Virus genome (UHGV): UHGV-0204589
DNA from: a virus
DNA: 44,194 nucleotides
Reading direction: 5' to 3' (one strand)
Shown: piece by piece, positions 1,692 to 41,354 of the stretch
Numbering within the stretch: the first letter of the stretch is position 1
Layout of the letters: each line of letters starts with the position of its first letter
Notes under the pieces: generated by a model
What the model saw: the letters and a program-made list of their open reading frames with translations, nothing else
Told to the model about the DNA's origin: nothing
Database searches by the model: none
Program-made: the position numbers and the translations under genes

Positions 1692-1848
1692 TTAAAACTT
1701 TTGGGAATAAAAAAGAGCCTTGCGGCCCTGCCCGACGTTTTGCAAAAGTGAGGAATTACAACCTCACAAGGGTCTACTGGCGGCTTTGCGTTCCCTGTTA
1801 TTTAATTTGATTATAGCAATTTTTTGAGAATTATACAATAGCAATATT
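1692..1848. repeat. copy 1 of a dispersed ~100-bp intergenic element (promoter-like TTGATT-17-ATTATA) carrying a 58-bp insertion (1732-1789) with hairpin GTGAGG-8nt-CCTCAC
   Basis: 98/99 identity to 41232-41330 apart from the indel; both copies sit just upstream of + strand genes. Confidence 0.8.
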
Positions 1849-1881
1849 AACGTTTAGGCGAAAAGCCGGAAAGGGTAAAGA

Positions 1882-2422: not shown

Positions 2423-2513
2423 GGCGGTGTGTGGTACACAGGGCGGGGTTCAACTCCCCGGACAGACCATGGTGGAAAGTAAGAGGGTGCCGGTTCGACT
2501 CCGGCCGCCGCCA
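2423..2513 (+). tRNA. tRNA-like element (~91 nt): 7-bp acceptor stem, canonical T-arm, long irregular middle containing a second T-arm-like hairpin; possibly type-II-like or pseudo tRNA
   Basis: GGCGGTG pairs with CGCCGCC (one G-U) 84 nt apart; GCCGG-TTCGACT-CCGGC T-arm; internal CGGGG-TTCAACT-CCCCG hairpin; no clean D-arm; minus-strand ORF here is the usual GVEP artefact. Confidence 0.5.
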
Positions 2514-2742
2514 ACTTAAAATTTTTATGAGGTATTACTATCAACACTTATTACTACGAATCTAAGTCAATAGAGTATATGCAAGGGAATTTTATTGATG
2601 CCGAAACAGCGAGTAAAGCAAAATATCTAATATGGCTAAAAGGTGCCTGTGAATACTTTGATTGTTTTGAAGACTTTATTCGGGACATAAAAATCAGGAA
2701 AATAAATTAACGTTTAGTCTGGCAAGCAAGAAAGGAAATAGT

Positions 2743-2958
2743 ATGGGAAAAAGAGATATTAAATGTTCTTCGTGTGAAAATAGTAAGTGGTCTGAATACT
2801 TTCAGGCATGGACATGTGAACACCCAGAATGTAAAGAAGTTCCAATATTCAAAGGCTCTACCCATCCGCATTGCTGTCCGCTGGTGGGAGGTAAGAAATA
2901 TATATGTCATAGAAACCATAAACCAACGATAGAAGTCAGATTGCCACTGCGTGGCTAA
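2743..2958 (+). CDS. Cys/His-rich putative zinc-binding protein
   Basis: RBS AAGAAAGGAAA; CSSCEN...CEHPEC...HPHCC motif. Confidence 0.5.
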   Translation: MGKRDIKCSSCENSKWSEYFQAWTCEHPECKEVPIFKGSTHPHCCPLVGGKKYICHRNHKPTIEVRLPLRG

Positions 2959-3008
2959 ACTGACATTGATGAAAAATTGTGTATACATACACAGAAAGGG
3001 GCAGAGGT

Positions 3009-3176
3009 ATGGCAAGACCAAAGAAAGAGACCGATAAGAAGTATATCCGGCAGAACATAAGCATGGACCCGGAACAACTAAAACGGGTAACCGCCTACTG
3101 CCAGAAAGAGGACAGGGCTATAAGCTGGGTAATCCGGCAGGCCCTGGACAGGTATCTTAATAATAACGTTGCGTAA
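3009..3176 (+). CDS. ribbon-helix-helix (CopG/Arc-like) DNA-binding protein
   Basis: RBS GAAAGGGG before ATG at 3009; DPEQLKRVTAYCQKEDRAISWVIRQALDRYL is a typical RHH pattern; upstream ATG at 2979 lacks RBS. Confidence 0.6.
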   Translation: MARPKKETDKKYIRQNISMDPEQLKRVTAYCQKEDRAISWVIRQALDRYLNNNVA

Positions 3177-3305
3177 CATTGCGTATCGTTACACAACAAA
3201 ACTGAGATTTTCCGACTAAAGAAAAATAAATAGAGGAACATATATGCACAGAATAAAAACTGAGCGATGGTCACCCGCCAAGATGAATCCACCGCTCCCG
3301 TAAAT

Positions 3306-3337
3306 ACGTCTGAGTATATTATATCTCACTCAGACGT
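3306..3337. promoter_or_regulatory. 10-bp perfect inverted repeat ACGTCTGAGT-12nt-ACTCAGACGT with AT-rich spacer, 30 nt upstream of the recombinase gene; candidate dif/lox-like core site or operator
   Basis: seen in sequence; arms extend imperfectly to ~12 bp. Confidence 0.5.
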
Positions 3338-3367
3338 GAAAATCAATACGAATGGGAGGATATAATT

Positions 3368-4414
3368 ATGAGTACACAGACAATTAAAGCTGAAATAATC
3401 AACAATGTACTGGTAGCAATGTCCTTATATATCATGGAGCAACAGACTCTTACCATTCTGCAAAATGTAATGCAGCAGGAATTGGTAAGGGTAAATATGG
3501 AGGAAATAACTACTCTTCCGGCAGAAAGAAAAGATGATATAAGCCAGCGGAATCAGTACATAATACAATTATTCCTGATTAAAAAACGCGATTTGGCAAA
3601 AGGAACTAAACAAAACTATCTTAATGCCATACGAAGATTGCTGACAGAGATAAGCACAAAATCACTGGACCAGATGGATACCACTGATATTGATTGGTAT
3701 TTATCGCGGTATGAAATTAGAAATGTATCTGCCGGGGGAAAGAAAAACCAGCCTAGTACCTATAATAACGAGCGCAGATTTCTGTCAGCATTCTTCGCAT
3801 GGATGCGCCTTGAAAAGCTTATTACAGATAATCCGGTAGAGTCTATACCAGCTAAAAAAGTACCCATTAAACCAATTGATTACTACAGCCCAGAAGAATC
3901 TGCAAGGTTAAGGGATGCGTGCAAAAATATCCGTGAGAGAGCCTTGCTGGAGGTACTTCGAAGTACTGGGGCAAGGATAGGGGAGATTGCAGAAATAACC
4001 CTGGACCAGATAGACATGAGAACAGGAGATGTATTAATTCAGGGGGAAAAAGGCGGTAGATACCGTACTATATATTTGGATGATGATGCAAGATATTATT
4101 ATGGCCTATACTTAGACAATCGGACAGATGATTGCCCATATATGTTTCCGCGTTCAAGGAAACCATATGGGAAAATGACTACTTGCGGTTTTCGAGCCAT
4201 AATAAAATCCATAGGAAAAAGGGCAGGACTTACATGCAGGGTTTATCCGCACAAATCCAGAAAAACATTAGGAATGAATCTTAGAAATCACGGTGTAGAG
4301 ATAGGAATTATACAGGAAATTTTTGGACATGCAAGTTCGGAAGTAACAATGAAATTTTATGCTCAGACTGATAATAGAAGACTGCGTAGCATTAGGGAAA
4401 GGGTGGCAGTATAG
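3368..4414 (+). CDS. tyrosine site-specific recombinase, XerC/D/XerS/Cre-like (second recombinase of the element)
   Basis: RBS GGGAGGA; catalytic signature LRSTGARIGE, HKSRKTLG, GHASSEVTMKFYA (R...H-x-x-R...H...Y). Confidence 0.85.
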   Translation: MSTQTIKAEIINNVLVAMSLYIMEQQTLTILQNVMQQELVRVNMEEITTLPAERKDDISQRNQYIIQLFLIKKRDLAKGTKQNYLNAIRRLLTEISTKSLDQMDTTDIDWYLSRYEIRNVSAGGKKNQPSTYNNERRFLSAFFAWMRLEKLITDNPVESIPAKKVPIKPIDYYSPEESARLRDACKNIRERALLEVLRSTGARIGEIAEITLDQIDMRTGDVLIQGEKGGRYRTIYLDDDARYYYGLYLDNRTDDCPYMFPRSRKPYGKMTTCGFRAIIKSIGKRAGLTCRVYPHKSRKTLGMNLRNHGVEIGIIQEIFGHASSEVTMKFYAQTDNRRLRSIRERVAV

Positions 4415-4419
4415 AAAGG

Positions 4420-4728
4420 ATGGACATGAGAACCAGATATAAAAACTACAGCGACTATGGTATTACTGATGATGAATCCAAGCGCATAAAAGAATACTGC
4501 CAGAACGCCAGCGTAGAAGATAAGCTTACATTGTTCCAGTGTGCCATATCCTCTGCTCCTGGCCTGGAAGTGGAAATATATGAGAGCCTTGTGGGTAACA
4601 TCGGATATGACAAGCTGAGTAAGAGGAAGAACATACCAATTAAACGGGATGATTTTTATGGGTACCAAAGAAAGACGCTGGATGAATATAGGAGATTAAT
4701 GACATTGTTTGGGAGGTGGAAAGGATGA
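4420..4728 (+). CDS. hypothetical protein, translationally coupled to recombinase
   Basis: RBS AAAGGA; starts 5 nt after recombinase stop. Confidence 0.5.
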   Translation: MDMRTRYKNYSDYGITDDESKRIKEYCQNASVEDKLTLFQCAISSAPGLEVEIYESLVGNIGYDKLSKRKNIPIKRDDFYGYQRKTLDEYRRLMTLFGRWKG

Positions 4729-4893
4729 AAAATGGTCATATAAAGGCAAGCGAATTATTGTGAATTGGTGACAGCTAGACTTTGGGTGCTAATATCATTA
4801 CCACACCCATGTGTAGAATAATGTGGGGACGATTTGCATTAACCACATATGATAAAATTAGTATAGGACTATTATACCACATGGGGTAAAAAC

Positions 4894-5085: not shown

Positions 5086-5338
5086 TTCGATTATGAAAAA
5101 GCTCCAGCGTGCCATATTGCAGACCAGACTTGTAATTAAGATATCCACCAATCAATTCTATAGCGAGGAACAGGGGCGCATGATAACCATATGGATATTA
5201 AGCACCCCTGTGCTACAGCAGGATAAGCATGGGGAGTGGAAAACAAGGGATTATGAAATACTGCGGAGTGCATCGGGGATTGAGATTGTGAAGTGCTTGC
5301 AGGAGATATGGGAGGCGGTGAAGGGATGGAAAAGATAA
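5075..5338 (+). CDS. hypothetical protein
   Basis: ORF 5057-5338, probable start at MNLNSIMKK. Confidence 0.4.
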   Translation: MNLNSIMKKLQRAILQTRLVIKISTNQFYSEEQGRMITIWILSTPVLQQDKHGEWKTRDYEILRSASGIEIVKCLQEIWEAVKGWKR

Positions 5339-5514
5339 AATTGTTACCTTGTCCGTTTTGTGGCGGGAGTCCAGAAAAAACAAGAAATGGCGGATTGAAA
5401 GGCATACACTGTAGCAATCCGGGATGTATAGCATTTAACATACAAGCGTTTTATTGCCGTTGGAAAAAGGCTATACATGCATGGAACAGAAGGTATGATA
5501 AGGATGGTGGTTAA
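5326..5514 (+). CDS. Lar-family restriction-alleviation-like zinc-ribbon protein
   Basis: RBS GGAGGCGG; MEKIKLLPCPFCGG...C.NPGC...AIHAWNRR matches the Lar small-protein pattern. Confidence 0.6.
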   Translation: MEKIKLLPCPFCGGSPEKTRNGGLKGIHCSNPGCIAFNIQAFYCRWKKAIHAWNRRYDKDGG

Positions 5515-5904
5515 GTGGAGCTTACACCAAAGCAGAAAGCGTTTGCTGATTATTATATAGAGTGCGGGAATGCAACGGAGGCGGCGAAGAAAGCTGGGTA
5601 CAAAGAAAAGGCTGCATACGCTACTGGCGCAGAGAACCTCAAAAAACCTCAGATAATCGCATACATCGAGGAACGGCAGAAACAGATAGAAGACAGCCGT
5701 ATTGCCTCTGCCGCGGAAATAATGCAATATTTCACATCTGTCATGCGCGGCGAGATGAAAGACCAATTTGGACTTGATGCTCCGCTGGCGGAAAGAACGA
5801 AAGCTGCTGTAGAACTAGCAAAGCGCAAGGTAGATGTAGCGCAGAATGCAGATACCGGCGGAATTGTTATAGTGAACAACATACCGAGGCCAGGGAAGGA
5901 GTAG
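5515..5904 (+). CDS. terS: terminase small subunit (P27/Terminase_2 family)
   Basis: GTG start; LTPKQKAFADYYIECGNATEAAKKAGYKEKAAYATGAENLKKPQIIAYI is the classic terS N-terminus. Confidence 0.85.
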   Translation: MELTPKQKAFADYYIECGNATEAAKKAGYKEKAAYATGAENLKKPQIIAYIEERQKQIEDSRIASAAEIMQYFTSVMRGEMKDQFGLDAPLAERTKAAVELAKRKVDVAQNADTGGIVIVNNIPRPGKE

Positions 5905-5908
5905 GGAA

Positions 5909-6106
5909 ATGAAAGAATTGAAGAAATGCCCGTTTTGTGGTGGAGAAATTAGCATAATAAAACAAAAGTGTTTAAACACAGGTTTTAAAAGCTATAAATT
6001 ATTTCATGGTTCTGATAGGTATTGTGTTTTGAATGACATAGTGTTCCCTCGGGTGTACGAGCAAAAGGAAACCGCAATAAAATCATGGAACAGACGAATG
6101 CTGTAA
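5909..6106 (+). CDS. Lar-family restriction-alleviation-like zinc-ribbon protein (second paralog)
   Basis: MKELKKCPFCGG...AIKSWNRR. Confidence 0.6.
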   Translation: MKELKKCPFCGGEISIIKQKCLNTGFKSYKLFHGSDRYCVLNDIVFPRVYEQKETAIKSWNRRML

Positions 6107-7344
6107 ATTTAACCGACATCGTAGCCCCTGCCTTTTACTCCGTCCATTGGGACATTCTGGATGGAAATCACACATACTATGACCTGTACGGAGGGCGCGG
6201 CTCTACGAAGTCCTCTTTCATATCAACGGAAATTGTCTTGGGTATGATGCAGGACGCAAAAGACGGAGTTTTCAGCAATGCGGTAGTGTTCCGTAAGGTC
6301 GGCAACACCCTACGGGAATCCGTCTTTGAGCAGATTGCATGGGCGATTGACGCGCTGGGGGCAAATGACCTGTGGGCGTCAAGCGTAAGTCCCATGCAGT
6401 ATGTATATAAGCCTACCGGACAGAAAATCATCTTCCGAGGGCTGGATAAGGCTAAGAAAACGAAGTCCATTAAGACGAGCCGGGGATATTTCAAATACCT
6501 CTGGCTTGAGGAACTTGATGAGTTCGCAGGAATTGAAGAAATCCGAACGGTGCAGCAGTCTGTTCTCCGTGGCGGCAGTAAGTTTGTGGTTTTTAAATCC
6601 TTCAACCCGCCAATCAGCCGGAGCAACTGGGCGAATGTGTACGTCAACGAGCCGAGAGAGAACAGCCTACGGCATAAGAGCACATACAAGGAGGTTGACC
6701 CGGAATGGTTAGGACAGCAGTTTATTGATGACGCTGAGCATCTAAAAGCGACCAATCCGAGAGCCTATGAGCATGAGTATCTCGGGGAGCCTGTCGGACT
6801 TGGAACAAATATCTTTGATATGCTGGAAGTGCGAGAGATTACGGACGAAGAAATAAGTCGAATGGAGCGTATCTATCAAGGCCAAGACTGGGGTTGGTAT
6901 CCCGACCCGAAAGCCTTTATTCGGGCGGCGTATATCCATAATACCGAAACAATCTATCTGCTGGACGAGCTGGGCGGCTGTAAAATCCGCAACAGCAAAA
7001 TGGCAGAGGATATAAAGGAAAAGGGCTATGATGATTATGAAATCCGCTGTGGCGCTGATGAACAGGAAAGCATTGTAGACTTCCGGGACGCTGGACTTCC
7101 GGCCAGACAAGCCAACGTAGGACCAGGAAGCGTCAAATATACCTTTGAATGGCTCCAGTGCCGGACGATTATTATAGACCCCGCCAGAACGCCGAGGGCA
7201 TATAAAGAAATTATAGAGTATGAACACGAAGTAGACAGTAACGGGGAAGTGATTGCGGATTATCCAGACCACAATAACCATTGGATAGATGCTTTGCGAT
7301 ATGCGACAAGCCCGCTGTCGATGAGAAGGGGAAACAGCGCATGA
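6085..7344 (+). CDS. terL: terminase large subunit (PBSX-type)
   Basis: Walker A YGGRGSTKS; C-terminal nuclease-domain acidic residues; 419 aa. Confidence 0.9.
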   Translation: MEQTNAVNLTDIVAPAFYSVHWDILDGNHTYYDLYGGRGSTKSSFISTEIVLGMMQDAKDGVFSNAVVFRKVGNTLRESVFEQIAWAIDALGANDLWASSVSPMQYVYKPTGQKIIFRGLDKAKKTKSIKTSRGYFKYLWLEELDEFAGIEEIRTVQQSVLRGGSKFVVFKSFNPPISRSNWANVYVNEPRENSLRHKSTYKEVDPEWLGQQFIDDAEHLKATNPRAYEHEYLGEPVGLGTNIFDMLEVREITDEEISRMERIYQGQDWGWYPDPKAFIRAAYIHNTETIYLLDELGGCKIRNSKMAEDIKEKGYDDYEIRCGADEQESIVDFRDAGLPARQANVGPGSVKYTFEWLQCRTIIIDPARTPRAYKEIIEYEHEVDSNGEVIADYPDHNNHWIDALRYATSPLSMRRGNSA

Positions 7345-7589
7345 CAGAATATAGCAAAAAGCGAGTAGGACAATTTTTAAAAAAGTATGTTGATATTTCC
7401 CCCGGTCATTCATACACAGAGGAATGCGTTATACGGCAAGGAATAAATGTATTGATATCAAACTGCATCTATACACCTAAATTATTGCAGAGACAGATAT
7501 TAAAGGAACAATCGGTATTGTTACCTTTGAGCTATATTGATAATTGCGCAAGATATGGGGGATTAAATGGGACTAATAACATGGGCTAA
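7341..7589 (+). CDS. hypothetical protein (start overlaps terL stop, ATGA)
   Basis: MTEYSKKRVGQFLKK...; likely start within ORF 7281-7589. Confidence 0.45.
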   Translation: MTEYSKKRVGQFLKKYVDISPGHSYTEECVIRQGINVLISNCIYTPKLLQRQILKEQSVLLPLSYIDNCARYGGLNGTNNMG

Positions 7590-8994
7590 AAAGGTGATAG
7601 GAATGATATTCAAACGACAGGCAGAAGAAGATTTTAATGTTGAGTCAGTGGTATCCCCGGAGATGGAAAGCAAGATTGAAGAGTGCGCCAATATCTACCG
7701 GGGTACGCCCTATTGGGTGAACGCTGACGATAACGTTAAGACAATCAATTTTGCAAAGGCTATTTGCTCCGAGACGGCCCGGCTTGCCACGTTGGCTATT
7801 GGGATACAGATTGACGGGAGCGCGCGGGCGGCGTGGCTCAAGGAGCAGATTGATAAGATATATTTCCAGATTAGGCACTGGGTAGAATATGGTATGGCCT
7901 ACGGCACAATCATCCTTAAGCCCAATGGAAAGGGACTGGACATATTCACACCTATGGATTTTATCATTACGGATTGCGACAATGAAGGTATATATGGAAT
8001 CGTGTTCAAGGATAGCTACAACGAAAATGATAAATACTATACCCGATTTGAGTATCATCGGTTTGTCGAAGTCAAAGATGGGGAGAACACCTATTACCCA
8101 TATTACATATCCAATAGAGCTTATGTGTCTCACTCTGCAAAAAGTGTGGGGGACCCGATAGCATTAAATAGGACTAAGTGGTCCGATTTACTTCCAGAGA
8201 CACCACCTATACTTAAAGCAAATAATGAGAAAATCGATGGTCCCATGTTTGGCATACTACGCACTCCACAGGCTAATAATTTGGATATTTCATCACCTTT
8301 AGGATTGCCAATATATGCCGAGGCCATAGAGGAATTAAATGACCTTGATGTGGCATATAGTCGGAATGTGGGTGAAATATTTGACAGTGAGAAAATTATA
8401 TTAATTGATGACCAATTAATGCTTGGTGATGGAAGAAATTTAAAACGCCCAGGAGTAAATAAAGTTAAATTACCCCATTATGTAAGAAATGTATTTGGAA
8501 ATAGTAATGGAGAATTTTACCATGAGATTAATCCATCGTTAAATACTGATATAAGACTTACTGGAATTAATAATCTTCTTTCATTTATTGGATTCAAGTG
8601 CGGATACTCCAACGGGTACTTTGTACTTGACGAAAAAACAGGTATGGTCACAGCCACACAGGTAGAAGCTGACGACCGCCGCACTATCCAGTTAATCAAG
8701 GATGTGCGCGACAAACTGGAAAGCTGTCTTGACGGGGCAATATATGCGCTTAATGTATATGCGGACCTGTACGGACTGGCACCAGCCGGAAACTACGAAA
8801 TCACATATGATTTTGGGGACATTACATACAACCGTGAGGAGGACCGGGCAAGATGGTGGCAATATGTTGTGCAGGGGAAGGTTCCGGCCTGGATGTATTT
8901 TCAGAAATTTGAAGGTTTATCCAAAGCAGATGCAAAGGCTATGGTGCAGGAAGCGCAACCTAAAGAACGTCCGGGATTTTTTGGGGAGGAATAG
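7567..8994 (+). CDS. portal protein
   Basis: 475 aa immediately after terL; size, position and acidic C-terminus typical of siphovirus portals. Confidence 0.7.
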   Translation: MGLITWAKKVIGMIFKRQAEEDFNVESVVSPEMESKIEECANIYRGTPYWVNADDNVKTINFAKAICSETARLATLAIGIQIDGSARAAWLKEQIDKIYFQIRHWVEYGMAYGTIILKPNGKGLDIFTPMDFIITDCDNEGIYGIVFKDSYNENDKYYTRFEYHRFVEVKDGENTYYPYYISNRAYVSHSAKSVGDPIALNRTKWSDLLPETPPILKANNEKIDGPMFGILRTPQANNLDISSPLGLPIYAEAIEELNDLDVAYSRNVGEIFDSEKIILIDDQLMLGDGRNLKRPGVNKVKLPHYVRNVFGNSNGEFYHEINPSLNTDIRLTGINNLLSFIGFKCGYSNGYFVLDEKTGMVTATQVEADDRRTIQLIKDVRDKLESCLDGAIYALNVYADLYGLAPAGNYEITYDFGDITYNREEDRARWWQYVVQGKVPAWMYFQKFEGLSKADAKAMVQEAQPKERPGFFGEE

Positions 8995-12116: not shown

Positions 12117-13335
12117 TTATCTACAGCATATAGCAGAGGGAAGTGAAGAAATAGCCTCCCAGCTCCATACATATATCATACGACAGATAATAGACCGCAT
12201 GATGATACGTATTGGGCGCGGAGATGATTATTTGCTTACATCCTCTGACAGATGGCGCATCCAGATATTACAGGACGCAGGGTATCTGCTGGAGGATATA
12301 ACAGCAGAGTTATCCAAGTATACCAAGCGGCAGGAAAAAGAGATTAAAGCGGCTATGGAGGATGCCGGGATAAAAGCACTGGAATATGACCATAAGATAT
12401 ACGAGGCCGCCGGCTTGTCCTCTATGCCGCTGACACAATCCCCGGCGCTTATCCGGCTGATGGAACGGAATTATCGGACAACGCTAGGGGAATGGAAAAA
12501 TTACACTAGGACAACGGCGCAATCTGCTCAAAGATTATTTATTAACGAGTGCGATATGGCCTATAACAAAGTTATGAGTGGAGCAACATCTTACACACAA
12601 GCAGTTAAAGAGGCTGTAGAAAATGTGGCCAGTGGGGGTATTACTCTTATTCAATATAGAAGTAAAAATACCGGAGACATAAGAAATGACACGATAGAAA
12701 CAGCTACGGCGCGGGCTGTGCGGACAGGTATATCACAGGCAACAGCACAGATAACATTGAAGCGCATGGAAGAGATGAAATGGGAAGTCGTGCTTGTGTC
12801 TGCACATGTAGGCGCAAGAAATATTGGAGGAATACCAGAGAATCATGAGCTTTGGCAAGGAAAATTTTACAGCCTTCCACAATACGGACATAGGTATCCT
12901 GATTTCTATTATTCTACGGGATATGGGGATATTACTGGATTATGTGGAGTAAATTGCAGGCATAGTTTTGGACCAGGGGATGGAGAGAATAATCCATATG
13001 ACACAATAGAAACAGAAGAAAACCGGAAAGTGTATGAAGCAGAGCAACGACAACGTGCCCTTGAACGCCGCGTCCGCAAGACCAAGCGCGAGGTTATGGG
13101 CATGCAGAAGGCCGTAGAGAAGTGCCAGGACGAGGCGGCAAAGTTTGAGCTACAGCAAGCACTTGACCGGAAGTCCTACCTGCTACAGAAGCAGAATAAG
13201 GCATATAACGATTACTGTAAGGCTAATGACCTGCGGACGCAGGCGGAGCGGCTTGCCGTGGCAAAATGGAGCCGTGAGCAGGCGGCAAAGGCCAGGGGAG
13301 CAGCGCGGCGGTATCAGAATGCGAAAGGGGAATGA
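12103..13335 (+). CDS. head morphogenesis / minor capsid protein, SPP1 gp7 / Mu F-like
   Basis: C-terminal conserved block VLVSAHVGARNIGG...GLCGVNCRHSFGPG; position after portal. Confidence 0.8.
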   Translation: MLSPNYLQHIAEGSEEIASQLHTYIIRQIIDRMMIRIGRGDDYLLTSSDRWRIQILQDAGYLLEDITAELSKYTKRQEKEIKAAMEDAGIKALEYDHKIYEAAGLSSMPLTQSPALIRLMERNYRTTLGEWKNYTRTTAQSAQRLFINECDMAYNKVMSGATSYTQAVKEAVENVASGGITLIQYRSKNTGDIRNDTIETATARAVRTGISQATAQITLKRMEEMKWEVVLVSAHVGARNIGGIPENHELWQGKFYSLPQYGHRYPDFYYSTGYGDITGLCGVNCRHSFGPGDGENNPYDTIETEENRKVYEAEQRQRALERRVRKTKREVMGMQKAVEKCQDEAAKFELQQALDRKSYLLQKQNKAYNDYCKANDLRTQAERLAVAKWSREQAAKARGAARRYQNAKGE

Positions 13336-13868
13336 TTATGGATGAGGTATGGAAAGATATACCCGGTTATGAGGGATTGTACCAGGTGAGTAATTTAGGG
13401 CGAGTTAAAAGCTTTCGAGGGAGTGCAAAATTTGGGAAGCCCGAAGAACTGATTTTAAAACCATCTTTAATTAATTCCGGGTATCATGTTGTAACGCTTT
13501 ATTCCAAGAACCGAGAAAAACATAAATTTCAAGTTCATAGGCTTGTGGCAGAAACTTTTATTGATAATCCCAATAGTTTTCCGTGCGTTAATCACAAGGA
13601 TGAGGATAAATTAAATAACTGTGTTTCAAACCTTGAATGGTGTACATATCAGTACAACAATAATTATGGAACCGCAAGAATACGAGCTGTTGAGAGTACA
13701 ATGAAAGCTATCATGCAAATGACATTAGATGGAATCCATATTGCTACATATCGCTCTGTCACAATAGCTTCTGAATTACTAAAGTATTCTCCGTCAAGTT
13801 TGCGGAAATGGTGTGATTCTGGCATTGGAGGAGGATATAAATGGAGGTACAGCAATGAACCGATTTAA
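13332..13868 (+). CDS. HNH homing endonuclease (NUMOD4 + HNH_3 + C-terminal HTH)
   Basis: IPGYEGLYQVSNLGRVKS (NUMOD4); HVVTLY...HRLVAETF...NHKDEDKLNNCVSNLEW (HNH). Confidence 0.85.
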   Translation: MIMDEVWKDIPGYEGLYQVSNLGRVKSFRGSAKFGKPEELILKPSLINSGYHVVTLYSKNREKHKFQVHRLVAETFIDNPNSFPCVNHKDEDKLNNCVSNLEWCTYQYNNNYGTARIRAVESTMKAIMQMTLDGIHIATYRSVTIASELLKYSPSSLRKWCDSGIGGGYKWRYSNEPI

Positions 13869-25290: not shown

Positions 25291-28104
25291 ATGCAAGCTG
25301 ATGGCACAGTACTTATAGACACTACCATTAAAACTGATGGATTTGAAAGTGGTGCAAAAGATTTAGAGCTTGCTATTCGTAGAATGGCTAAATCAATAGA
25401 AGGGCTGGGGGATAAAGCTAAGATTTCATTGCAGAAACAGGTTGATTCTTTTGCTAAATTAAATAATCAATATTCACAGCAGGCCAAAAAAGTTAATGAT
25501 TTAGAAAATAAATTAGAAGAACTTAAGGGAAAGTCAATAGAGACTGACACTTTTAAATCACTTACAAAGGAAATTGATAGCGCTCAAAATAAACTTGATA
25601 CATTTTACGGTAACATTAGAAAGATGGAAAAATCAGGAGTTTCCCCCAGCTCTTCTGGCTACAAAAAAGCTATTGCGCAAATAGATATATATGAACAAAA
25701 GGTAAAATCTTTATATGCTGAGAGGAATGCTCTGGTTTCTTCTGGAAATGCATATACCCCTGTAGATACAACAGCACTGGAAGAAAAATTGATTTTAGAA
25801 AGAACTAAACTCGAAAACATTAACAATCGTTTAAATACATCTTATATGTCACTTAAACAAAAAATGTCAGAGTATGGAGGTAATTTAAGTCTATTATCAA
25901 ATAAAACTGTTAAATCTTCCGCTGAGATTGGAATGCTTCAAAGCTCTTTGAATGGATTGCAAGTTGTACTTAATGGCTTAAAAGCATTACCTTCAATTGT
26001 TGCAACTAATTTAAAAGCACTTCCGTCTAAAACGGTAATTGCTGGAATCAATGGACTAAAAAGCGGATTTTCAAAACTTATATCCGTTATAAAAAAAGTT
26101 GCAAAGGAAGCCCAGAAAGCGGCCTTATCATTTGCCCAGATGGTAGGAAAAGGTATAGTTGGTAAACTCAAAAAGATAAGTGCTGGTATCTTTGGATTAA
26201 ACAAAAATACAAATAGGGCCAGAGGTTCATTTGGGAAAATGCTTACTACATCACTCTTAATGGGAACTGCATTTATGGCATTAAGTTCCATATTGAGAGG
26301 TATGAAAGATGGAATAAATAATCTAGCAAAATATTCAGATGAAACCAATGCCACACTTTCAACATTGAAATCGTCCTTAACACAGTTGAAAAATGCACTG
26401 GCAACAGCGTTTGCCCCTATCTTTAGTGCTGTTGCTCCTGCATTAAATAGCCTTATTAAGCTATTAACATCTGCCGCAACTGCTGTGTCAAGGCTTATTG
26501 CTGCATTAACTGGTAAGAATACATTTGTAAAAGCAAAAGAAGTACAGCAAGACTATGCTGAGAGCTTAGAAGAAACAGGAAATGCGGCAGAAGAAGCAGA
26601 AGGAGCATTGGCATCATTTGATAAATTGAATGTTGCACAGGATAATTCAAACAAGGGTGGCGGCGGAGGTGGTGGAGACTTATCACCCAATGATATGTTT
26701 GAAACCGTAGAAGTCGAACCTTTGAACTTTGATTCCTGGGGTGAGGCTTTCAGTTCGTTTTTGGATTATTTACTTAATAATGGTATTCCTGCTTTAAGAA
26801 ACGCATTAACCGGGTTGGCAAACTGGATAAATACCTTTGCGGCAAATTTGTATGAGATGTTTACCTTCCCAGGAGTGCGTGAAAAAGTACAGTTATTAGG
26901 AACTGAACTTGCAAATGCTTTAAATGATTTCACAAATCAAATTGACTGGGCTATGATTGGAAAGGCTCTTGGTGCCGGCTTTGATTTAGCTGTTCAATTT
27001 TTGGTTAGTTTTATTTGGACATATGATTGGATGAATTTAGGCGCATCACTTGCCGAAATGGTGAATAATGCGCTTGAACAGGTGGACTGGTATTCGTTTG
27101 GAAAACTATTGTGTGCTAAATTCAAGATTATGATAGAAACAGCTGCCGGTTTTTTACTGAATCTTGATATGAAAGAACTTGCAAAGGCAGCGTCTAACAT
27201 TGCAATTGGTTTTTTTGATTCGATAACTGAAACAATTCAAAATATTAACTGGGCAGAATTGGGACAACAATTAATGCGATTTCTTTTAGGAATAGACTGG
27301 ATAGGCATTGCAGGTTCCGTATTTGATGCACTTATGTCAGCGTTTGGGGCAGTTTTCGCTTTTCTTGCAGGTGCTATATGGGAACTCATAAGTACCGCCT
27401 GGGATTCTGTTGTTGAATGGTGGCATGATGTCGCTTTTGAGGACGGAAAATTCACAATAACAGGGTTGCTTGATGGGATTCTTGATGTACTTAAAGGTAT
27501 TGGAAACTGGATAAAAGAACATATATTTCAGCCTTTCATTGATGGTTTCAAAAGTGTATTTGGGATTCATAGTCCATCTAAAGTTATGAGCGAAATGGGC
27601 GAATTTTTAATGGAAGGATTATTAGGTGGAATTACAAGCTTGATTCCGTCTATAGTCGATAAATTCGGTGACTTAAAAGATAAAGTTGTAGAAAAACTCC
27701 AAGGAATTGCAGATAAAATAAAGGAAGTATTGTTTGGATACGATGACCTGGAAAAAGCCGGAAAAACCAAAAGCATAAAAGGAAGTTTTACAAGTAATGT
27801 CCTTTCAGTTATTCCACGCTCAAGTGAAGTATACCTTCCTCGCTTAGCATCGGGAACTGTAGTTCCACCACGGGCTGGAGAGTTTGCTGCAATACTGGGA
27901 GATAACAAGAGAGAAACCGAAGTGGTTTCCCCAATATCAACCATGAAACAGGCATTAAAAGAAGCTCTGGGCGACTTCGGAGGAATAGGTGGCGGAGATA
28001 TCCATCTGACAGTAAACTTGGAAGGAAAGGCTATTTATGACACTGTAGTCAAGAGGAACCGAATGGAAAAGAACAGAACAGGGAGCAATCCACTATTAGC
28101 GTAA
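25291..28104 (+). CDS. tail tape measure protein
   Basis: 937 aa, coiled-coil N-half, TM segments, Gly run. Confidence 0.85.
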   Translation: MQADGTVLIDTTIKTDGFESGAKDLELAIRRMAKSIEGLGDKAKISLQKQVDSFAKLNNQYSQQAKKVNDLENKLEELKGKSIETDTFKSLTKEIDSAQNKLDTFYGNIRKMEKSGVSPSSSGYKKAIAQIDIYEQKVKSLYAERNALVSSGNAYTPVDTTALEEKLILERTKLENINNRLNTSYMSLKQKMSEYGGNLSLLSNKTVKSSAEIGMLQSSLNGLQVVLNGLKALPSIVATNLKALPSKTVIAGINGLKSGFSKLISVIKKVAKEAQKAALSFAQMVGKGIVGKLKKISAGIFGLNKNTNRARGSFGKMLTTSLLMGTAFMALSSILRGMKDGINNLAKYSDETNATLSTLKSSLTQLKNALATAFAPIFSAVAPALNSLIKLLTSAATAVSRLIAALTGKNTFVKAKEVQQDYAESLEETGNAAEEAEGALASFDKLNVAQDNSNKGGGGGGGDLSPNDMFETVEVEPLNFDSWGEAFSSFLDYLLNNGIPALRNALTGLANWINTFAANLYEMFTFPGVREKVQLLGTELANALNDFTNQIDWAMIGKALGAGFDLAVQFLVSFIWTYDWMNLGASLAEMVNNALEQVDWYSFGKLLCAKFKIMIETAAGFLLNLDMKELAKAASNIAIGFFDSITETIQNINWAELGQQLMRFLLGIDWIGIAGSVFDALMSAFGAVFAFLAGAIWELISTAWDSVVEWWHDVAFEDGKFTITGLLDGILDVLKGIGNWIKEHIFQPFIDGFKSVFGIHSPSKVMSEMGEFLMEGLLGGITSLIPSIVDKFGDLKDKVVEKLQGIADKIKEVLFGYDDLEKAGKTKSIKGSFTSNVLSVIPRSSEVYLPRLASGTVVPPRAGEFAAILGDNKRETEVVSPISTMKQALKEALGDFGGIGGGDIHLTVNLEGKAIYDTVVKRNRMEKNRTGSNPLLA

Positions 28105-28107
28105 GGA

Positions 28108-28530
28108 GTGAGCGGTATGCAGAAGGATTACAGGGGATATCTAGTTATGTTTGGAAGTCATCAGCTTCCCAATTCTTTTCTTACCCGTTATGCCTCAACT
28201 CCTGACCAGAGAATTGAAAAAAAAGCATGGAGGGATAACACGGAGGCTCTTCAGCGTGTTACCTCTCCCAATTATAAAACGACATTAAATCTAGAAATCC
28301 GACCGCTGACTCAGCGAGAAAAAGACCTTTGGAACAGCATAAAGGCGGCCGGGATTTTGGATGAAACGCAGCGTAAGTATTCAGTTACATATTGGAACTT
28401 GGATACATGTGTGTATGGAACGGGTGAATTTTATGTTCCTGACACGGAATATGCAGTTAGCCATATATATGACAATGAGACAGGTGACATGCAATATGAG
28501 GCATTTACCCTGGAAATGATTCAGTATTAA
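28108..28530 (+). CDS. small tail component (distal-tail-protein position)
   Basis: position after tape measure. Confidence 0.45.
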   Translation: MSGMQKDYRGYLVMFGSHQLPNSFLTRYASTPDQRIEKKAWRDNTEALQRVTSPNYKTTLNLEIRPLTQREKDLWNSIKAAGILDETQRKYSVTYWNLDTCVYGTGEFYVPDTEYAVSHIYDNETGDMQYEAFTLEMIQY

Positions 28531-28544
28531 GTGTAGGTGCTGAT

Positions 28545-30485
28545 ATGTTAGATGTAGAACAGAAATTCAAGGATTTATATAATTCATATGGTGGGAAAAA
28601 ACTTAAATTAACATTTTATAAAGACGATTACAGAGCATTGTACCCATCAGAGACATTATTCCCATCAGAACAGCTTTATCCGTTAGAAATGGATTCTGAT
28701 GCGATAGAGTTCGTCATTTCCGATGATATGATAAAGTCTGATAGTATGAAGATAACGGAAAGTCTGTGTTCGGATGAAGATTTAAACTTTGGTGCATGTG
28801 AGTGCTCGCAGTTTGAAATTGTGGTGTCCGGGTTATCACGGAATATTGCTGGAAAAGAATTCCTTGTATCTGAAAGTCTTGGGGAATATGAACTTACATT
28901 GGGGCTTTTTACGGTTGATTCCACACCCAAGCAGGAAGATAAGGACACCAGAAAAATCATTGCATATGACCGTATGAAACGCTTTGATGCGGATGTATCG
29001 GGGTGGTATAATCTTTTGTCCTTTCCGATGACATTAAAAGCATTTAGAAATTCTTTGTGTGAGTTTGTTGGAGTAAATGAAGTAGAAAACACGGAATTAA
29101 TAAATGATGATATGGAAGTGGAAAAGACACTTGAACCATCATCACTTAATGGGAGGGATGTATTAAAGTATATATGCCAAATCAACGGCACATTTGGAAA
29201 TATTACTAAAAATGGTGAACTACGATATGTTTCTGTACCAAAGACAGATGATATAAGTATAGAAATTATGGTATATAAGACCGTTGAGAGTGAAGAATAT
29301 AATGTGCCAGATATTGATACGGTAAAAATACAGCAAGAAGAGGGGGATATAGGTGGAACCAGTGAAGGTGATGGAAATAATATCTATATCATTGAAGGGA
29401 ATCCACTTGTATATGGGAAAAATACATCCCAAATGATTGCTATTGCCAATAACATAAAATCTGTGATAAGCGGCATATCTTATTGTCCGGCAGAAATATC
29501 AACAAATGGTTCACCATGGATTGAAGTAGGGGACAGAATTAAGATATTGACTTCGGATGGAACTGTAAATACCATTGTCATGAAGCGAGATTTGACAGGC
29601 ATACAGGGTTCAATGGATGATTTTTCTAGCACAGGAAGTCAAGAACTCGAAAGAAAGTTTAACATAGAAAGCGAAATCATTCAAGTGAAAGGGCTTTCCG
29701 CCATATTAAAGCGCACGGTTGAGGAAGTATCAAATGAATTGACCGATCTTGAACGGGAAACTACATCAAAATTCACACAAACAGCCCAGGAAATTTCGCT
29801 TATGGTGAAAAAGGGAGATGTTACATCACAAATAAACTCCGAATTAAAGGTGACAGGAAATGCCATCGAACTTACAACAGGACATTTTACAATCAATGCT
29901 AAAAATATGACTGTTGATAGTGGTGGAAATGCTACTTTTTCGGGTACTGTGTCCGGTGCGTCAATTGTTGGCGGGAGTATAAATATAGGAAATGGTAATT
30001 TCACTGTTTCTTCTAGCGGAATTGTAGAAGCTAAAAATGCAAAAATTACAGCAGCTACACTTAATTCCACTGGCATTATATATGCTGAAAGAGGAATGGT
30101 TTGTAATGGAGAAATAGAGGCAGACATAGGGTCGATTGAACAGATAAACACCAGGAGCATATATTGTACCGGCATGGTATATGGTGGTGGATGGACAGAA
30201 ATATCAGACAGGAGAGAAAAACGGGATATACAGGACATACCTCCAGATACATGCATTGATGTAATAAAAAGGTTAAAACCTGTCGCTTATACGCTGATTG
30301 ACAATGGAATTAGGGGAACAGGTTTCGTTGCCCAGGACGTCAAGGAAATATCAGATGAAATAAACCTTGATTATCAACTTGTAAGCTACATTTCGGAACG
30401 CAAAAGATATGGTATAGAATACAAAAATTATATTGCGTTTCTGACCGGAGCTGTTCAACACATATTGGAAAGGTTGGGAGAATGA
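28545..30485 (+). CDS. tail fibre / tail-associated protein with C-terminal intramolecular chaperone (peptidase S74) domain
   Basis: C-terminal ...SDRREKRDIQDIPPDTCIDVIKRLKPVAYTLIDNG...GFVAQDV...NYIAFLTGAVQHILERL pattern of auto-cleaving chaperone domain. Confidence 0.75.
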   Translation: MLDVEQKFKDLYNSYGGKKLKLTFYKDDYRALYPSETLFPSEQLYPLEMDSDAIEFVISDDMIKSDSMKITESLCSDEDLNFGACECSQFEIVVSGLSRNIAGKEFLVSESLGEYELTLGLFTVDSTPKQEDKDTRKIIAYDRMKRFDADVSGWYNLLSFPMTLKAFRNSLCEFVGVNEVENTELINDDMEVEKTLEPSSLNGRDVLKYICQINGTFGNITKNGELRYVSVPKTDDISIEIMVYKTVESEEYNVPDIDTVKIQQEEGDIGGTSEGDGNNIYIIEGNPLVYGKNTSQMIAIANNIKSVISGISYCPAEISTNGSPWIEVGDRIKILTSDGTVNTIVMKRDLTGIQGSMDDFSSTGSQELERKFNIESEIIQVKGLSAILKRTVEEVSNELTDLERETTSKFTQTAQEISLMVKKGDVTSQINSELKVTGNAIELTTGHFTINAKNMTVDSGGNATFSGTVSGASIVGGSINIGNGNFTVSSSGIVEAKNAKITAATLNSTGIIYAERGMVCNGEIEADIGSIEQINTRSIYCTGMVYGGGWTEISDRREKRDIQDIPPDTCIDVIKRLKPVAYTLIDNGIRGTGFVAQDVKEISDEINLDYQLVSYISERKRYGIEYKNYIAFLTGAVQHILERLGE

Positions 30486-30664
30486 TGGATAAGATAGTAG
30501 TGTTCAAATATGAGGATGTACGTAAGTTAGCAGACTGCATCAACTCCATACAAGTATCTGGATTTGAAAATGCAAAGCTTATCTCGATTGCGGCCAACAT
30601 CATTGACACTGGCAGAATAAAAAATAAAGATAGCATGGAAGGGGACGGCAATGAGACTGGATAA
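30482..30664 (+). CDS. hypothetical protein
   Basis: 60-aa ORF. Confidence 0.35.
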   Translation: MMDKIVVFKYEDVRKLADCINSIQVSGFENAKLISIAANIIDTGRIKNKDSMEGDGNETG

Positions 30665-31424
30665 CATATTCTATACGATTGTTGGGTGGCTGAACTTCCC
30701 AGACAAATCCACTCCATTAGGAAAGAAAAACCTTCGTCATATGGATAGCGGAATTCTACAATGCGCCCAGCATATTTTATCACTGTCGCAAGATAAGGCA
30801 GAGTTATCCGAAGTGAATACTATGGTGCAGGACGTTACGTTGGATGTAGATACTGGTATTCTTACGGTAAAGTTAAAAAATGGAACGACAAAAACATATG
30901 ATTTAGCCATTGAAAAGGTCGTTGTAAATTTTCATATCACAGATGATAATGAACTTGTACTTGAGCTTGCAGATGGAACAGAAAAGATTATTGACTTAAC
31001 CAGGTTTGCATATTCTGTTGACAGTACAGCAACAATATCCATGAAAATTAGTAACAGAACAATTACGGCGGAGATTGTGGACGGGTCAATTACGTTATCA
31101 AAGTTGGAACAGTCTGTTATGACCACTATCAGGCAGTATATGCTCGATGCGCAAACCGCGGCAACATCTTCGGAACAATATTATATCGCATCAAAAAGCT
31201 GGGCGGTGGGTGGAACATCAAGCCGTGATAACGAAGATAATGACAACAGTAAATGGTATAGCGAAAGGGCAAAAGCAGAAGCTGACCGGGCAGCATCATT
31301 TTCAGAGCTGACATTCCCGGAATTTTACCTTGATATTAGCAATTGGCATCTGATGTGTAAACAAGGTAAGAATGTGACATTTTCGATAAGCCAAAATAAT
31401 CATGTAATTGTAGAGGTGGCATAA
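30651..31424 (+). CDS. tail fibre-associated protein
   Basis: position in fibre gene block. Confidence 0.5.
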   Translation: MRLDNIFYTIVGWLNFPDKSTPLGKKNLRHMDSGILQCAQHILSLSQDKAELSEVNTMVQDVTLDVDTGILTVKLKNGTTKTYDLAIEKVVVNFHITDDNELVLELADGTEKIIDLTRFAYSVDSTATISMKISNRTITAEIVDGSITLSKLEQSVMTTIRQYMLDAQTAATSSEQYYIASKSWAVGGTSSRDNEDNDNSKWYSERAKAEADRAASFSELTFPEFYLDISNWHLMCKQGKNVTFSISQNNHVIVEVA

Positions 31425-32254
31425 TGGCAACAACAGATTTGGGTAAATGGATGATAACAAATGGTGGCGAATATAATCCAGACACCACTTACGAACAACT
31501 TACAATGGTTTTGTACGAAAATAGTACGTACATTACCCTTCGTACAGTTACTGGTATAACGCCAAATAATGATAAGATAAATTACATATTAATGGCACAG
31601 GGATTTAGTGCCAATGCATTAGCAGATGTTGTTGCAAAGGATACTTATGGAGCAATTGGAAATGTAGGTGAGTCTGTATCTGCGCAAAGCCTGATTGATT
31701 ATCTTACAAACGAAGTTGTTAATAATTTGATTAAAAAGACTTCTATTTCAACTGTTCAAGTGAATTCGAATGATATGGTTCCGTCATCCTCTCTGTCCTA
31801 TTCGATGCAGCGCGCGATTGATAACATAAATAGCAATTTCGCGGCCGAAAGATATACTGGAAATATAGATGGCTTGTTTAAAAATTGTGTGGTTCAGTTA
31901 TTCTCTTCCCTTGGCACTACTGGCACTTTCCCAGAATCAGACATTAATGGGTCATTTTTGCATGTTGTTAATAATGGAAGTGACTTCTGCTTTCAGCAAC
32001 TTAACATCATAACCAACAAAAACACAACCTCCTATAAACGTAGTTGGTATTACGGCAATGATACGGTATACCCTGGATGGTCTGATTGGCGAAAGGTTAT
32101 CACAAACTCGGATTTACCAATTCTCACCGTACGCACAGGTACGAGATACTGGACACAATACACCGAGGTTTCGGGGCAAAAGCGGATATATTTTTATAAT
32201 GCCGATTTCCCGTCAGGCAATAACCTGTTAGGGTATATAGCACTTACAAAGTAA
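31424..32254 (+). CDS. tail fibre / receptor-binding protein candidate
   Basis: position; C-terminus RIYFYNADFPSGNNLLGYIALTK abuts inverted fragment. Confidence 0.5.
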   Translation: MATTDLGKWMITNGGEYNPDTTYEQLTMVLYENSTYITLRTVTGITPNNDKINYILMAQGFSANALADVVAKDTYGAIGNVGESVSAQSLIDYLTNEVVNNLIKKTSISTVQVNSNDMVPSSSLSYSMQRAIDNINSNFAAERYTGNIDGLFKNCVVQLFSSLGTTGTFPESDINGSFLHVVNNGSDFCFQQLNIITNKNTTSYKRSWYYGNDTVYPGWSDWRKVITNSDLPILTVRTGTRYWTQYTEVSGQKRIYFYNADFPSGNNLLGYIALTK

Positions 32255-32566
32255 TCATTTAATGTTACGAGACACATCAAATGTAATATAGCCTTTATCA
32301 ACGCCATCTACAAAAAACTGTACATAGTTTTGGGTATCATTCAGTTTGTTGACGTACAAGGATACTGCTTTACCAGCAGATACTCCGGTTGTTTTAACAG
32401 CACTGGTAAAGTCCGCATTTGTAATAACCTTATTGTCATCTACATATGCTGTGCCGTTATCATGGATACCAAGGGTATGTGTCTTTGCCGGGGAGCGTAG
32501 GGATGTCTTATATGTTGATTGTACTATGACATCACCTAAATTGCTATTTACTATATAAAAAACATA
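32255..32566 (-). pseudogene. 103-codon reverse-oriented fibre C-terminal coding fragment with no start codon (YVFYIVNSNLGDV...GYITFDVSRNIK), tail-to-tail with fibre gene; candidate invertible alternative C-terminus
   Basis: long open frame on minus strand without ATG/GTG/TTG near its 5' end; bounded upstream by TAA; + strand ORF 32346-32558 lacks RBS. Confidence 0.5.
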
Positions 32567-37361: not shown

Positions 37362-37382
37362 ATGTTTACTCCTTAAAATAAT

Positions 37383-41330: not shown

Positions 41331-41354
41331 TAAGATTTTGAAAGGATAAAGCAC

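Follow-up and report, generated by a model that had tools for sequence, protein, structure and literature searches.

The closest described counterpart of the system considered here is the Rin shufflon of Bifidobacterium prophages, in which an armless XerD-like tyrosine invertase is encoded beside receptor-binding cassettes with 11-bp sites (PMC6109161). Its authors note that a phage invertase acting at a distance has not been reported (PMC6109161). Inversions by a tyrosine recombinase also swap the C-termini of adhesin-type proteins in the Rci/R64 shufflon (cited in PMC9881135), where the target is the plasmid pilus protein PilV and Rci adjoins the shufflon. Tail-fibre C-termini are exchanged by Gin, Cin, Min and Pin of Mu, P1, p15B and e14, which are kept at a low enzyme level (PMC6109161, PMC12529663); these enzymes belong to the serine recombinases, depend on Fis and an enhancer, and adjoin their targets. 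Here, we report on a tyrosine recombinase gene (positions 3368-4414) of virus genome UHGV-0204589, a stretch of 44,194 nucleotides (nt) that was analysed at its full length and is called the window below. We consider it somewhat better than an even bet (a probability of roughly 0.55) that this gene encodes a tail-fibre invertase located remotely from the fibre segment that it would invert.

The window is a circularly permuted genome of a temperate siphophage (Table 1). In agreement with a preliminary description of this DNA, the open reading frame (ORF) in question carries Phage_integrase and SAM-like domains and represents a second tyrosine recombinase, of 348 residues, besides the canonical integrase (Int). 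That description offered three roles for the enzyme, namely dimer or multimer resolution in an episomal or plasmid-like element, service to a small integrative module nested in the phage, and inversion of the fibre genes. The last of these is the one that the comparisons below favour.

Table 1. Positions of the features discussed in the text. HP1 and HP2 are the two hairpins upstream of the recombinase gene; RHH, ribbon-helix-helix; sRNA, small RNA.
Feature	Position	Strand	Remarks
Tyrosine recombinase, 348 aa	3368-4414	+	Pfam Phage_integrase and SAM-like (SAM_4) domains; armless, Xer-like
Shine-Dalgarno sequence GGGAGGA of the recombinase gene	3354-3360	+	read from the sequence
HP2 (palindrome of the preliminary description)	3306-3337	+	sense-leader hairpin enclosing the -10 box of the predicted antisense promoter
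HP1	3262-3297	-	9-bp stem, inner helix, UUGG-containing apical loop; second covarying hairpin, absent from the preliminary description
-35 box TTGATT of the predicted antisense promoter	3341-3346	-	promoter scan; 17 nt from the -10 box
-10 box TATAAT of the predicted antisense promoter	3318-3323	-	promoter scan and conservation
Predicted cis-antisense sRNA, ~60 nt	3252-3311	-	start near 3311, hairpin HP1, U-tail AGUUUUUAUU; predicted from promoter position, hairpin and tail
Tail-fibre/receptor-binding gene	31424-32254	+	C-terminal head is the proposed inversion target
Left crossover site TAAATAGCAATTT	31827-31839	+	encodes NSN
Startless alternative fibre C-terminus, 94 aa	32255-32537	-	open from the right site inwards to a stop codon
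Right crossover site, inverted copy	32538-32550	-	
Conserved tRNA-like RNA, 91 nt, GC-rich	2423-2513	+	7-bp acceptor stem, T-arm, internal T-arm-like hairpin
RHH (CopG-type) gene	3009-3176	+	Pfam RHH_1, E = 5.6e-6
Hairpin holding both TTGCGTA copies	3167-3198	-	terminator scan: 12 pairs, then TTATTATT; terminator-like on the minus strand
ORF of 102 aa, conserved neighbour	4420-4728	+	all-helical
Early and replication genes	~41 kb through 3.2 kb		
terS	5515-5904		
terL	6085-7344		
Portal gene	7567-8994		
Tail and fibre genes	up to ~33 kb		
Canonical integrase (Int)	34168-35256	-	adjoins the CI/S24-type repressor
CI/S24-type repressor	36738-37484		

Inverted crossover sites in the tail-fibre cassette

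Perfect copies of TAAATAGCAATTT occur only twice in the window, inverted relative to each other. One copy lies at the junction between the constant and the variable part of the fibre gene and the other borders a startless C-terminus that is read inwards from it on the opposite strand, which is the layout of Rin/Rci-type systems. As in Rin, short sites mark the junction between the constant N-terminus and the variable C-terminus of a receptor-binding protein (PMC6109161), and the startless variable segment has the opposite orientation. Fibre homologues in other phages match residues 1 to ~140 only, that is, up to the site, and at 9 of 13 fibre-homologue loci an inverted copy of the junction sequence follows 330-700 nt downstream.

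A site scan recovered an identical 14-bp site (WAAATAGCAATTTAG) as inverted pairs with a spacing of 300-1200 nt; more than 30 contigs carry such pairs, in unrelated flanking sequence. The 14 bp encode the residues NSNL and fall where the shaft of the fibre protein, collagen-like or coiled-coil, meets the head. Identity of the site at the nucleotide level across such diverse genes points to selection on the DNA, and we regard the comparative evidence for a universal 14-bp site as strong.

Homology between genomes also breaks off exactly at the crossover site in two comparisons. One relative (L322) carries the alternative head of the window in the expressed orientation beside the constant part, at 98.6% identity, an arrangement that could be the product of module exchange rather than inversion. 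The metagenome contig L443 (Ga0192277_1302) is 94.8% identical to window positions 27826-31839 over 4 kb; the homology stops exactly at the last base of the site and a different head follows, which again could be module exchange.

The fibre cassette contains, in addition, an inner inverted repeat (32093-32115/32409-32431; 23 nt, 83% complementary) that encodes KVITN. The arrangement in L322 is what nested inversions, or exchange of modules, at the site pair and at the inner KVITN repeat would give. Two other contigs have an adjacent invertase gene flanked by two NSNL-site cassettes (L416, 3215-6020; L405, 4172-6820), a multi-cassette, shufflon-like organization.

The recombinase and its relatives

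The catalytic domain of the recombinase matches PF00589 with E = 7.8e-29, and 16 homologues of 52-100% identity all retain R203, K228, H295, R298, H321 and Y331. With this full set of catalytic residues the enzyme is predicted to be catalytically intact. A conserved helical N-terminal extension of ~60 residues (55-65 aa) precedes the core-binding domain and marks this phage family; the N-terminal 60 residues gave no match to a Pfam arm-binding domain. The best matches among solved structures, at E = 1e-28 to 1e-29 across the core-binding and catalytic domains, are archaeal XerA and a Pyrococcus XerC-like protein (PDB 5hxy, 4a8e); XerD is also among the closest. Unlike in the two archaeal proteins, these domains follow the extension of ~60 residues, for which XerA and the Pyrococcus protein have no counterpart.

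The NCBIfam equivalog scores lie far under the cut-offs for XerD (102.6 against 329.6), XerC (92.9 against 335), XerS (46.3 against 267) and XerA (150 against 220), and the label “XerS/Cre-like” that had been given to the protein is not sustained by them. Among invertase models, only the FimB/E type was listed in the same scan, weakly (E = 5e-9); in contrast to Rci, the window recombinase has no NCBIfam match to Rci-type models. It resembles Rin in being a phage-encoded armless tyrosine recombinase separate from the Int of its phage (PMC6109161). The hosts differ (Firmicutes for the window phage, Actinobacteria for Rin), and the two systems are likened here by layout, not by sequence comparison.

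Homologues of the recombinase number 488 at E <= 1e-20, mainly in Enterocloster, Lacrimispora and other Lachnospiraceae, and 202 contigs in IMG/VR carry a member of the family. In every context examined, the gene is on the same strand as its neighbours and lies between early genes (methylases, YopX, small zinc-ribbon ORFs) and terS/terL. The carriers are hundreds of Lachnospiraceae prophages that also have a normal integrase; for example, the cultured relative phiCs5676-1, whose recombinase is 52% identical to that of the window, encodes a separate canonical Int beside its repressors. Several family members are found in complete chromosomes and belong to integrated prophages, not plasmids. A location between replication and packaging genes, a separate Int and an unlinked tRNA-like element (see below) do not fit a Lambda-type integrase.

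Some database gene calls (P0001, P0003-P0005 and others) give a recombinase of 382 aa, which would require read-through of in-frame TGA codons at 3284 and 3311. This longer version probably reflects the wrong genetic code in the gene caller, rather than recoding.

A homologue of fibre-adjacent invertases encoded far from the fibre

The enzyme is connected to the fibre sites through its relatives. At 12 of the more than 30 loci with the 14-bp site, a tyrosine recombinase is encoded beside or between the sites. These site-adjacent recombinases are 30-35% identical to that of the window, have the same kind of N-terminal extension and are unrelated to the window Int; within the window all of them match 3368-4414 and never Int. 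As the sole window homologue of enzymes that adjoin fibre cassettes with the same site, 3368-4414 is probably the remote fibre invertase, and fibre inversion is the favoured one of the three roles that had been offered for it. The site-adjacent clades are only 33-35% identical to each other, yet flank the same site, so the divergence of the window enzyme is no obstacle to its sharing this site. In L374 and L403, moreover, the adjacent invertase gene is preceded by the same upstream cassette as the window gene, consisting of HP1, HP2 and a minus-strand TTGCGC-17-TATAAT (see below). A distal recombinase (57-100% identity) and a fibre site pair occur together in at least 11 contigs, and no recombinase was found within 3 kb of the fibre in the contigs of this kind that were examined (L310-L322).

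If 3368-4414 is the remote invertase, it would invert the segment between the TAAATAGCAATTT sites at 31827 and 32538. The inversion would swap the receptor-binding head of the fibre for the startless alternative head, and the host range would change. The system would then provide tail-fibre phase variation of the Rin/Rci kind with an invertase gene 16-28 kb from its target, whereas the Rin gene adjoins its cassettes. The crossover sites are different as well, TTCCCTAACCC in Rin and AAATAGCAATTTAG in the window phage. The exchange of a tail-fibre C-terminus, and the low enzyme level predicted below, are features shared with Gin, Cin, Min and Pin.

Several points weigh against a remote invertase. 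We infer the link of this enzyme to the fibre sites from comparison of genomes, and the case for the enzyme-target assignment is suggestive, not decisive. The proposed distance of 16-28 kb has to be set against known phage invertases, which adjoin their targets. The strictly conserved position at the early/late boundary is not explained by an invertase model and could mean a different role in the lytic cycle. The cultured phage phiCs5676-1 is without a AAATAGCAATTT pair, the sole inverted repeat in its tail genes being another one, of 16 nt, and contig 010614 has the antisense cassette and a fibre inverted repeat with no recombinase in the next 8 kb downstream. The flipped fibre junction of this exact phage, ...ATAACATAAATAGCAATTT joined to AGGTGATGTCATAG..., was not found in the metagenome collection, in which the phage is represented by only one contig, giving the search little power. 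Finally, the check for a serine invertase is limited to 20 other ORFs of the window; that none of these yielded a Resolvase domain, unlike in phages with Gin-type enzymes, speaks for the recombinase.

Some of these points would be expected if the recombinase had another role in the lytic cycle, such as the resolution of replication or concatemer junctions at an as yet unrecognised site, and if the fibre were inverted in trans by an invertase of the host or of a co-resident prophage. The early/late-boundary position is conserved in every clade, phiCs5676-1 lacks an NSNL site pair, the fibre cassette of contig 010614 has no nearby recombinase, and the adjacent invertases of other phages use the same site and could act in trans. 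We take this alternative as a serious rival, yet judge it to be unlikely. No alternative candidate site was found near the gene; a 25-nt inverted repeat inside it (3627-3651/3778-3802) decays with divergence, from 22/25 complementary positions to 18/25 in ~90% identical homologues and 7/25 in ~70% identical ones, and was rejected as a product of chance. The recombinase has its architecture and, in one clade, its regulatory cassette in common with bona fide fibre-adjacent invertases, and the pairing of a distal recombinase with a fibre site pair in at least 11 contigs is likewise more in keeping with a remote fibre invertase.

The palindrome upstream of the recombinase gene

A perfect 10-bp inverted repeat (3306-3315/3328-3337) with a 12-nt spacer ends 30 nt before the ATG of the recombinase gene. 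The repeat is as the preliminary description reported it; its interpretation there, as a core site like those of XerS/difSL or Cre/loxP, did not survive comparison with other genomes. Perfect 10-bp hairpin repeats occur at three loci in the window against 0.8 expected, which is modestly above chance. Since such a repeat is not rare, its significance had to come from cross-genome comparison.

Comparison of the regions upstream of recombinase homologues revealed the repeat (HP2) paired with a second hairpin (HP1). A covariance model built from 24 sequences found this two-hairpin cassette at 40 distinct loci, to which the counts below refer, and places it directly upstream of recombinases down to 26% identity with that of the window (26-38% included). 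Stem sequences of HP1 and HP2 differ among clades, with the structure kept. All nine pairs of HP1 are changed on both sides, 92% of cells are paired, and none of 500 shuffles reaches the observed covariation score. HP2 forms a hairpin in 40/40 cassettes, with stems of 6-12 bp that differ in sequence and loops of 10-21 nt. MAFFT/RNAalifold on the raw alignment gave HP1 alone, the two loop-length classes of HP2 misaligning, and the covariance model with per-sequence hairpin calls was used instead. The cassette has no meaningful match to an Rfam family on either strand. It is separable from the recombinase gene: small zinc-ribbon ORFs follow it in L063 and L108, and the recombinase of L063 lies 3.5 kb further downstream.

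Two weak matches of the covariance model in the window (1744-1852 and 41247-41334) are AT-rich repeated intergenic sequence, not cassettes. The intergenic element at 1692-1855 is repeated at 41232-41337, 39.5 kb apart, as a 40-nt exact repeat and a 79-nt repeat of 91% identity, and it contains a promoter-like TTGATT...TATACAAT.

A Cre/loxP- or XerS/difSL-like system would have the recombinase act on this palindrome in dimer resolution or genome cyclisation, with either plasmid-like maintenance or pac-linked cyclisation. The armless, Xer-like enzyme, whose nearest structures are XerA and XerD, and the perfect inverted repeat 30 nt upstream of its gene recall XerS/difSL, XerH/difH and Cre/loxP, in which a single armless tyrosine recombinase has a gene-adjacent palindrome. 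The gene also lies just upstream of terS, reminiscent of P1, where loxP is close to pac. However, such systems need a crossover region of fixed length, 6-8 bp (or 11 bp), and the spacer here varies from 10 to 21 nt; the arms covary freely, are not conserved in sequence, and belong to one of two different hairpins in tandem. A variable spacer and freely changing arms do not describe a lox or dif core, and this reading of 3306-3337 is rejected on the evidence of the 40 loci. Neither 13-bp repeats around an 8-bp spacer conserved beside the gene, as in Cre/loxP, nor two ~11-bp arms with a fixed centre, as in dif-type sites, are found at the palindrome, and no other candidate site was detected. The bases that are invariant belong to promoter hexamers with a fixed spacing of 17 nt, independent of the position of the stem.

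The genomic setting argues in the same direction. Genes other than that of the recombinase come next after the cassette in L063 and L108; the family resides in chromosomal prophages that encode an Int and a CI-type repressor themselves; partition genes were not seen; and the Xer equivalog scores are far under their cut-offs (rounded, 103 against 330 for XerD and 46 against 267 for XerS). We therefore consider a Cre- or Xer-like role at the palindrome to be very unlikely. The suggestion of dimer or multimer resolution with episomal or plasmid-like maintenance falls with it, the family being one of chromosomal prophages and the palindrome not being a core site.

A predicted antisense RNA against the recombinase leader

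Two blocks of the cassette alignment are invariant, ATTATA in the loop of HP2 and, 3' of it, CAA; on the minus strand they read TATAAT and TTG. At 39 of the 40 loci, TTGnnn is accompanied by TATAAT (27 loci), TATACT (6) or TACAAT (6), at a spacing of 17 nt in 38 loci and 18 nt in one. The strict pattern TTGnnn-17-TAnnnT is present on the minus strand of 38/40 loci and on the plus strand of 0/40, against a mean of 0.47 for shuffled sequences. The boxes of the window (3346-3341/3323-3318) are among the two best-scoring sites of a generic promoter scan. The 17-nt spacing stays constant across the geometries of HP2: TTG overlaps the 3' arm in the long-loop class and lies 7 nt beyond the arm in the short-loop class, which includes the window. 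The conserved element at HP2 appears to be a minus-strand sigma-70 promoter.

On the same strand, HP1 is followed by a U-rich tail in nearly all loci; in the window this tail is AGUUUUUAUU and ends near 3252. The minus-strand RNA of the window folds at -21.7 kcal/mol (z = -3.1), and HP1 gains on this strand an inner helix of G.U pairs and the apical loop that contains UUGG. The HP1 region is more stable as minus- than as plus-strand RNA in 40/40 loci (mean -18.3 vs -13.1 kcal/mol). The energy of HP2 shows no strand preference, and only one arm of HP2 falls within the predicted antisense transcript. The simplest reading of the cassette is a predicted cis-antisense sRNA of ~60 nt directed against the recombinase leader. 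Comparative evidence for the RNA cassette is strong. Seen at least 40 times, covarying and unmatched in Rfam, it is well supported as a candidate new RNA family.

Constitutive promoters on the opposite strand of the leader of a recombinase or replication gene are known from IS10 RNA-OUT/RNA-IN, CopA and pIP501 RNAIII. Like RNA-OUT and the countertranscripts, the RNA predicted here is a short stem-loop with a U-tail, fully complementary to the target leader, with a YUNR-like UUGG at its apex. Unlike them, it would spare the start codon and the Shine-Dalgarno sequence, and its target would be the mRNA of an invertase. No antisense RNA has been described for Rin, and our literature searches returned nothing on the sequence of the crossover site, nor on an antisense-controlled phage invertase.

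In the proposed mechanism, the sigma-70 promoter within HP2 would start a transcript near 3311 that runs through HP1 (3297-3262) to its end at the U-tract near 3252, HP1 serving both as the terminator and as the recognition stem-loop. The antisense RNA, fully complementary to the leader of the recombinase mRNA, would pair with it through the HP1 loops (apical UUGG) and the 5' tail. Pairing would lower the translation or the stability of the recombinase mRNA and so keep expression low.

Repression could also involve pairing of the 3' arm of HP2 with the Shine-Dalgarno sequence. This pairing beats shuffles in 13/40 loci (mean -5.3 vs -3.3 kcal/mol); in the window it reaches -3.4 kcal/mol and 83/200 shuffles are as good. 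Such a model fits some clades, not the window, which together with the predicted status of the antisense RNA itself is a further point against the proposed scheme as a whole.

The two hairpins could instead form a sense-strand cis-regulatory leader, either an RNA that binds a protein or ligand or an attenuator, with no antisense RNA and with TATAAT and TTG kept by constraints at the RNA level. The pairs of HP2 on the plus strand include 15 G.U and 1 A.C across the 40 loci, a bias in favour of a sense RNA; the plus-strand fold of 3256-3345 has z = -5.0; and the 3' arm of HP2 is complementary to the Shine-Dalgarno sequence in several clades. These properties are also compatible with an antisense RNA, of which the sense leader would be the target. 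A constraint on a sense leader does not account for TTG and TATAAT lying exactly 17 nt apart while the hairpin geometry shifts (TTG within the stem or 7 nt outside it), nor for the better pairing of the minus strand at HP1 in 40/40 loci, or for the U-tract that follows HP1 on that strand. We hold a sense leader without an antisense RNA to be improbable and retain the antisense RNA as the preferred interpretation.

A Cheo/LexA-type box (GAAC-N4-GTTC, at most one mismatch) lies 20-100 nt upstream of the cassette in ~22 of the 40 relatives, including L106, L071, L374 and L042. The box of L374 is inside a sense promoter, TTGCAA-17-TATTAT, and that of the window is degenerate (GGAACATATATGCAC, 3237-3251). 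The presence of the box suggests that the invertase is under SOS control in many relatives.

The tRNA-like element

The element at 2423-2513 has the acceptor stem and T-arm that the preliminary description saw in it. Its invariant 3' half recurs in 43 viral contigs of IMG/VR (L188-L228). The internal hairpin shows a compensatory change, from CGGGG/CCCCG to CCAGG/CCTGG, and some variants have an optional inserted hairpin. The loop of this hairpin (TTCRAYT) resembles a T-loop and is variable at the place where an anticodon would have to be constant. Neither ARAGORN nor an Rfam search at gathering thresholds calls a tRNA or transfer-messenger RNA (tmRNA), only sub-threshold partial tmRNA matches being returned, and in relaxed ARAGORN runs the “anticodon” changes from one variant to the next. 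The element is thereby rejected as a canonical tRNA or tmRNA. The folding energy is unremarkable (z = -0.5). By sequence conservation, the element is a genuine candidate for a conserved RNA, and it is distributed independently of the recombinase.

This independence bears on the suggestion that the recombinase belongs to a small integrative module nested in the phage, with 2423-2513 as its attachment (att) site. The 3' ends of tRNA genes are the target of many integrases, and the element does have a tRNA-like acceptor stem and T-arm. However, element and recombinase lie anywhere between 0.45 and 11.8 kb apart; no recombinase accompanies the element at 10 or more loci for which at least 6 kb of downstream sequence is available; and loci with a 100% identical recombinase are without the element. 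The complete acceptor stem and the compensatory change fit an expressed RNA, not an att fragment, and no arm-binding domain was detected in the recombinase. The linkage being variable or absent, an att role for the element is rejected, and we regard a nested module as extremely unlikely.

Neighbouring genes and other features of the window

The preliminary description also named an RHH gene as a partner of the recombinase. The gene is present, and its partnership is not borne out: RHH homologues occur within 1.5 kb upstream in only ~13 of 80 recombinase-homologue loci, at variable distance, and other ORFs fill the slot in the close relatives L003-L007. With a minority of loci and variable spacing, a dedicated partner is not supported, and the RHH gene is a neighbour from the early region with no fixed association to the recombinase. 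The tandem TTGCGTA repeats noted beside it exist as two copies at 3168-3184 but are merely part of the 12-pair hairpin at 3167-3198; many relatives have a GC-rich hairpin at the equivalent position.

Downstream of the recombinase in the window and in L003, and upstream of the cassette in the L093 group, lies an ORF of 102 aa. Its AlphaFold model is predicted to be all-helical (predicted local distance difference test score, pLDDT, 90); the ORF has no Pfam match and the model no PDB match at E <= 0.001. The intergenic region after it (4730-4893) holds several repeats of the type CCACAT(G)/CATGTGG in both orientations, just upstream of small late-proximal ORFs, and may be a protein-binding array. 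Two Lar-like restriction-alleviation zinc-ribbon ORFs (5293-5514 and 5909-6106) flank terS.

The region 19213-19858, immediately upstream of the scaffold gene, holds a group of clustered structured RNAs, namely RAGATH-21 (79.7 bits), tRNA-Ile(TAT), tRNA-Gln(TTG) and a GP20-b RNA; the tRNA-Gln is 89 nt long with an 18-nt insert. Upstream of the canonical int are a perfect 11-bp hairpin repeat (35495-35534) and a 29-nt inverted repeat (35432-35460/35656-35684, 86% complementarity), which may represent the attP region or terminators. ORFs of the HNH/NUMOD4 homing-endonuclease type are found in the window at 13332-13868 and in L005 at 12780-13292, where the ORF splits the large terminase gene.

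Significance for gut phages

Beyond the window, the comparisons allow a tentative generalization, which we think possible but more doubtful than the assignment of 3368-4414 itself. Gut Firmicutes phages may share a “universal” exchange of fibre heads that is based on one 14-bp site, AAATAGCAATTTAG (NSNL), and on diverged, N-terminally extended tyrosine invertases encoded either adjacent to the fibre or remotely at the early/late boundary. Inversion within a genome and swaps of heads between co-resident phages and prophages could both proceed at this site, with the enzyme dose set by a cis-antisense sRNA of a previously undescribed kind. An SOS (LexA-box) promoter would, in many relatives, act alongside it and couple the diversification of host range to prophage induction.

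For annotation, the locus corrects an error that is easily made, as a palindrome beside an Xer-like gene need not be its recombination site. If the proposed assignment is true, the gene would be a remotely encoded phage invertase, which had gone unreported according to the Rin study (PMC6109161), and the antisense cassette would represent RNA-level dosing of a site-specific recombinase outside transposons. The site and the enzyme would also form a natural pair for the engineering of receptor-binding heads. Tail-fibre switching sets which bacteria a phage infects. With one conserved site and a recognisable invertase family, phase variation of host range would become predictable from sequence in numerous temperate phages that infect Lachnospiraceae, gut bacteria that are dominant and hard to work with.

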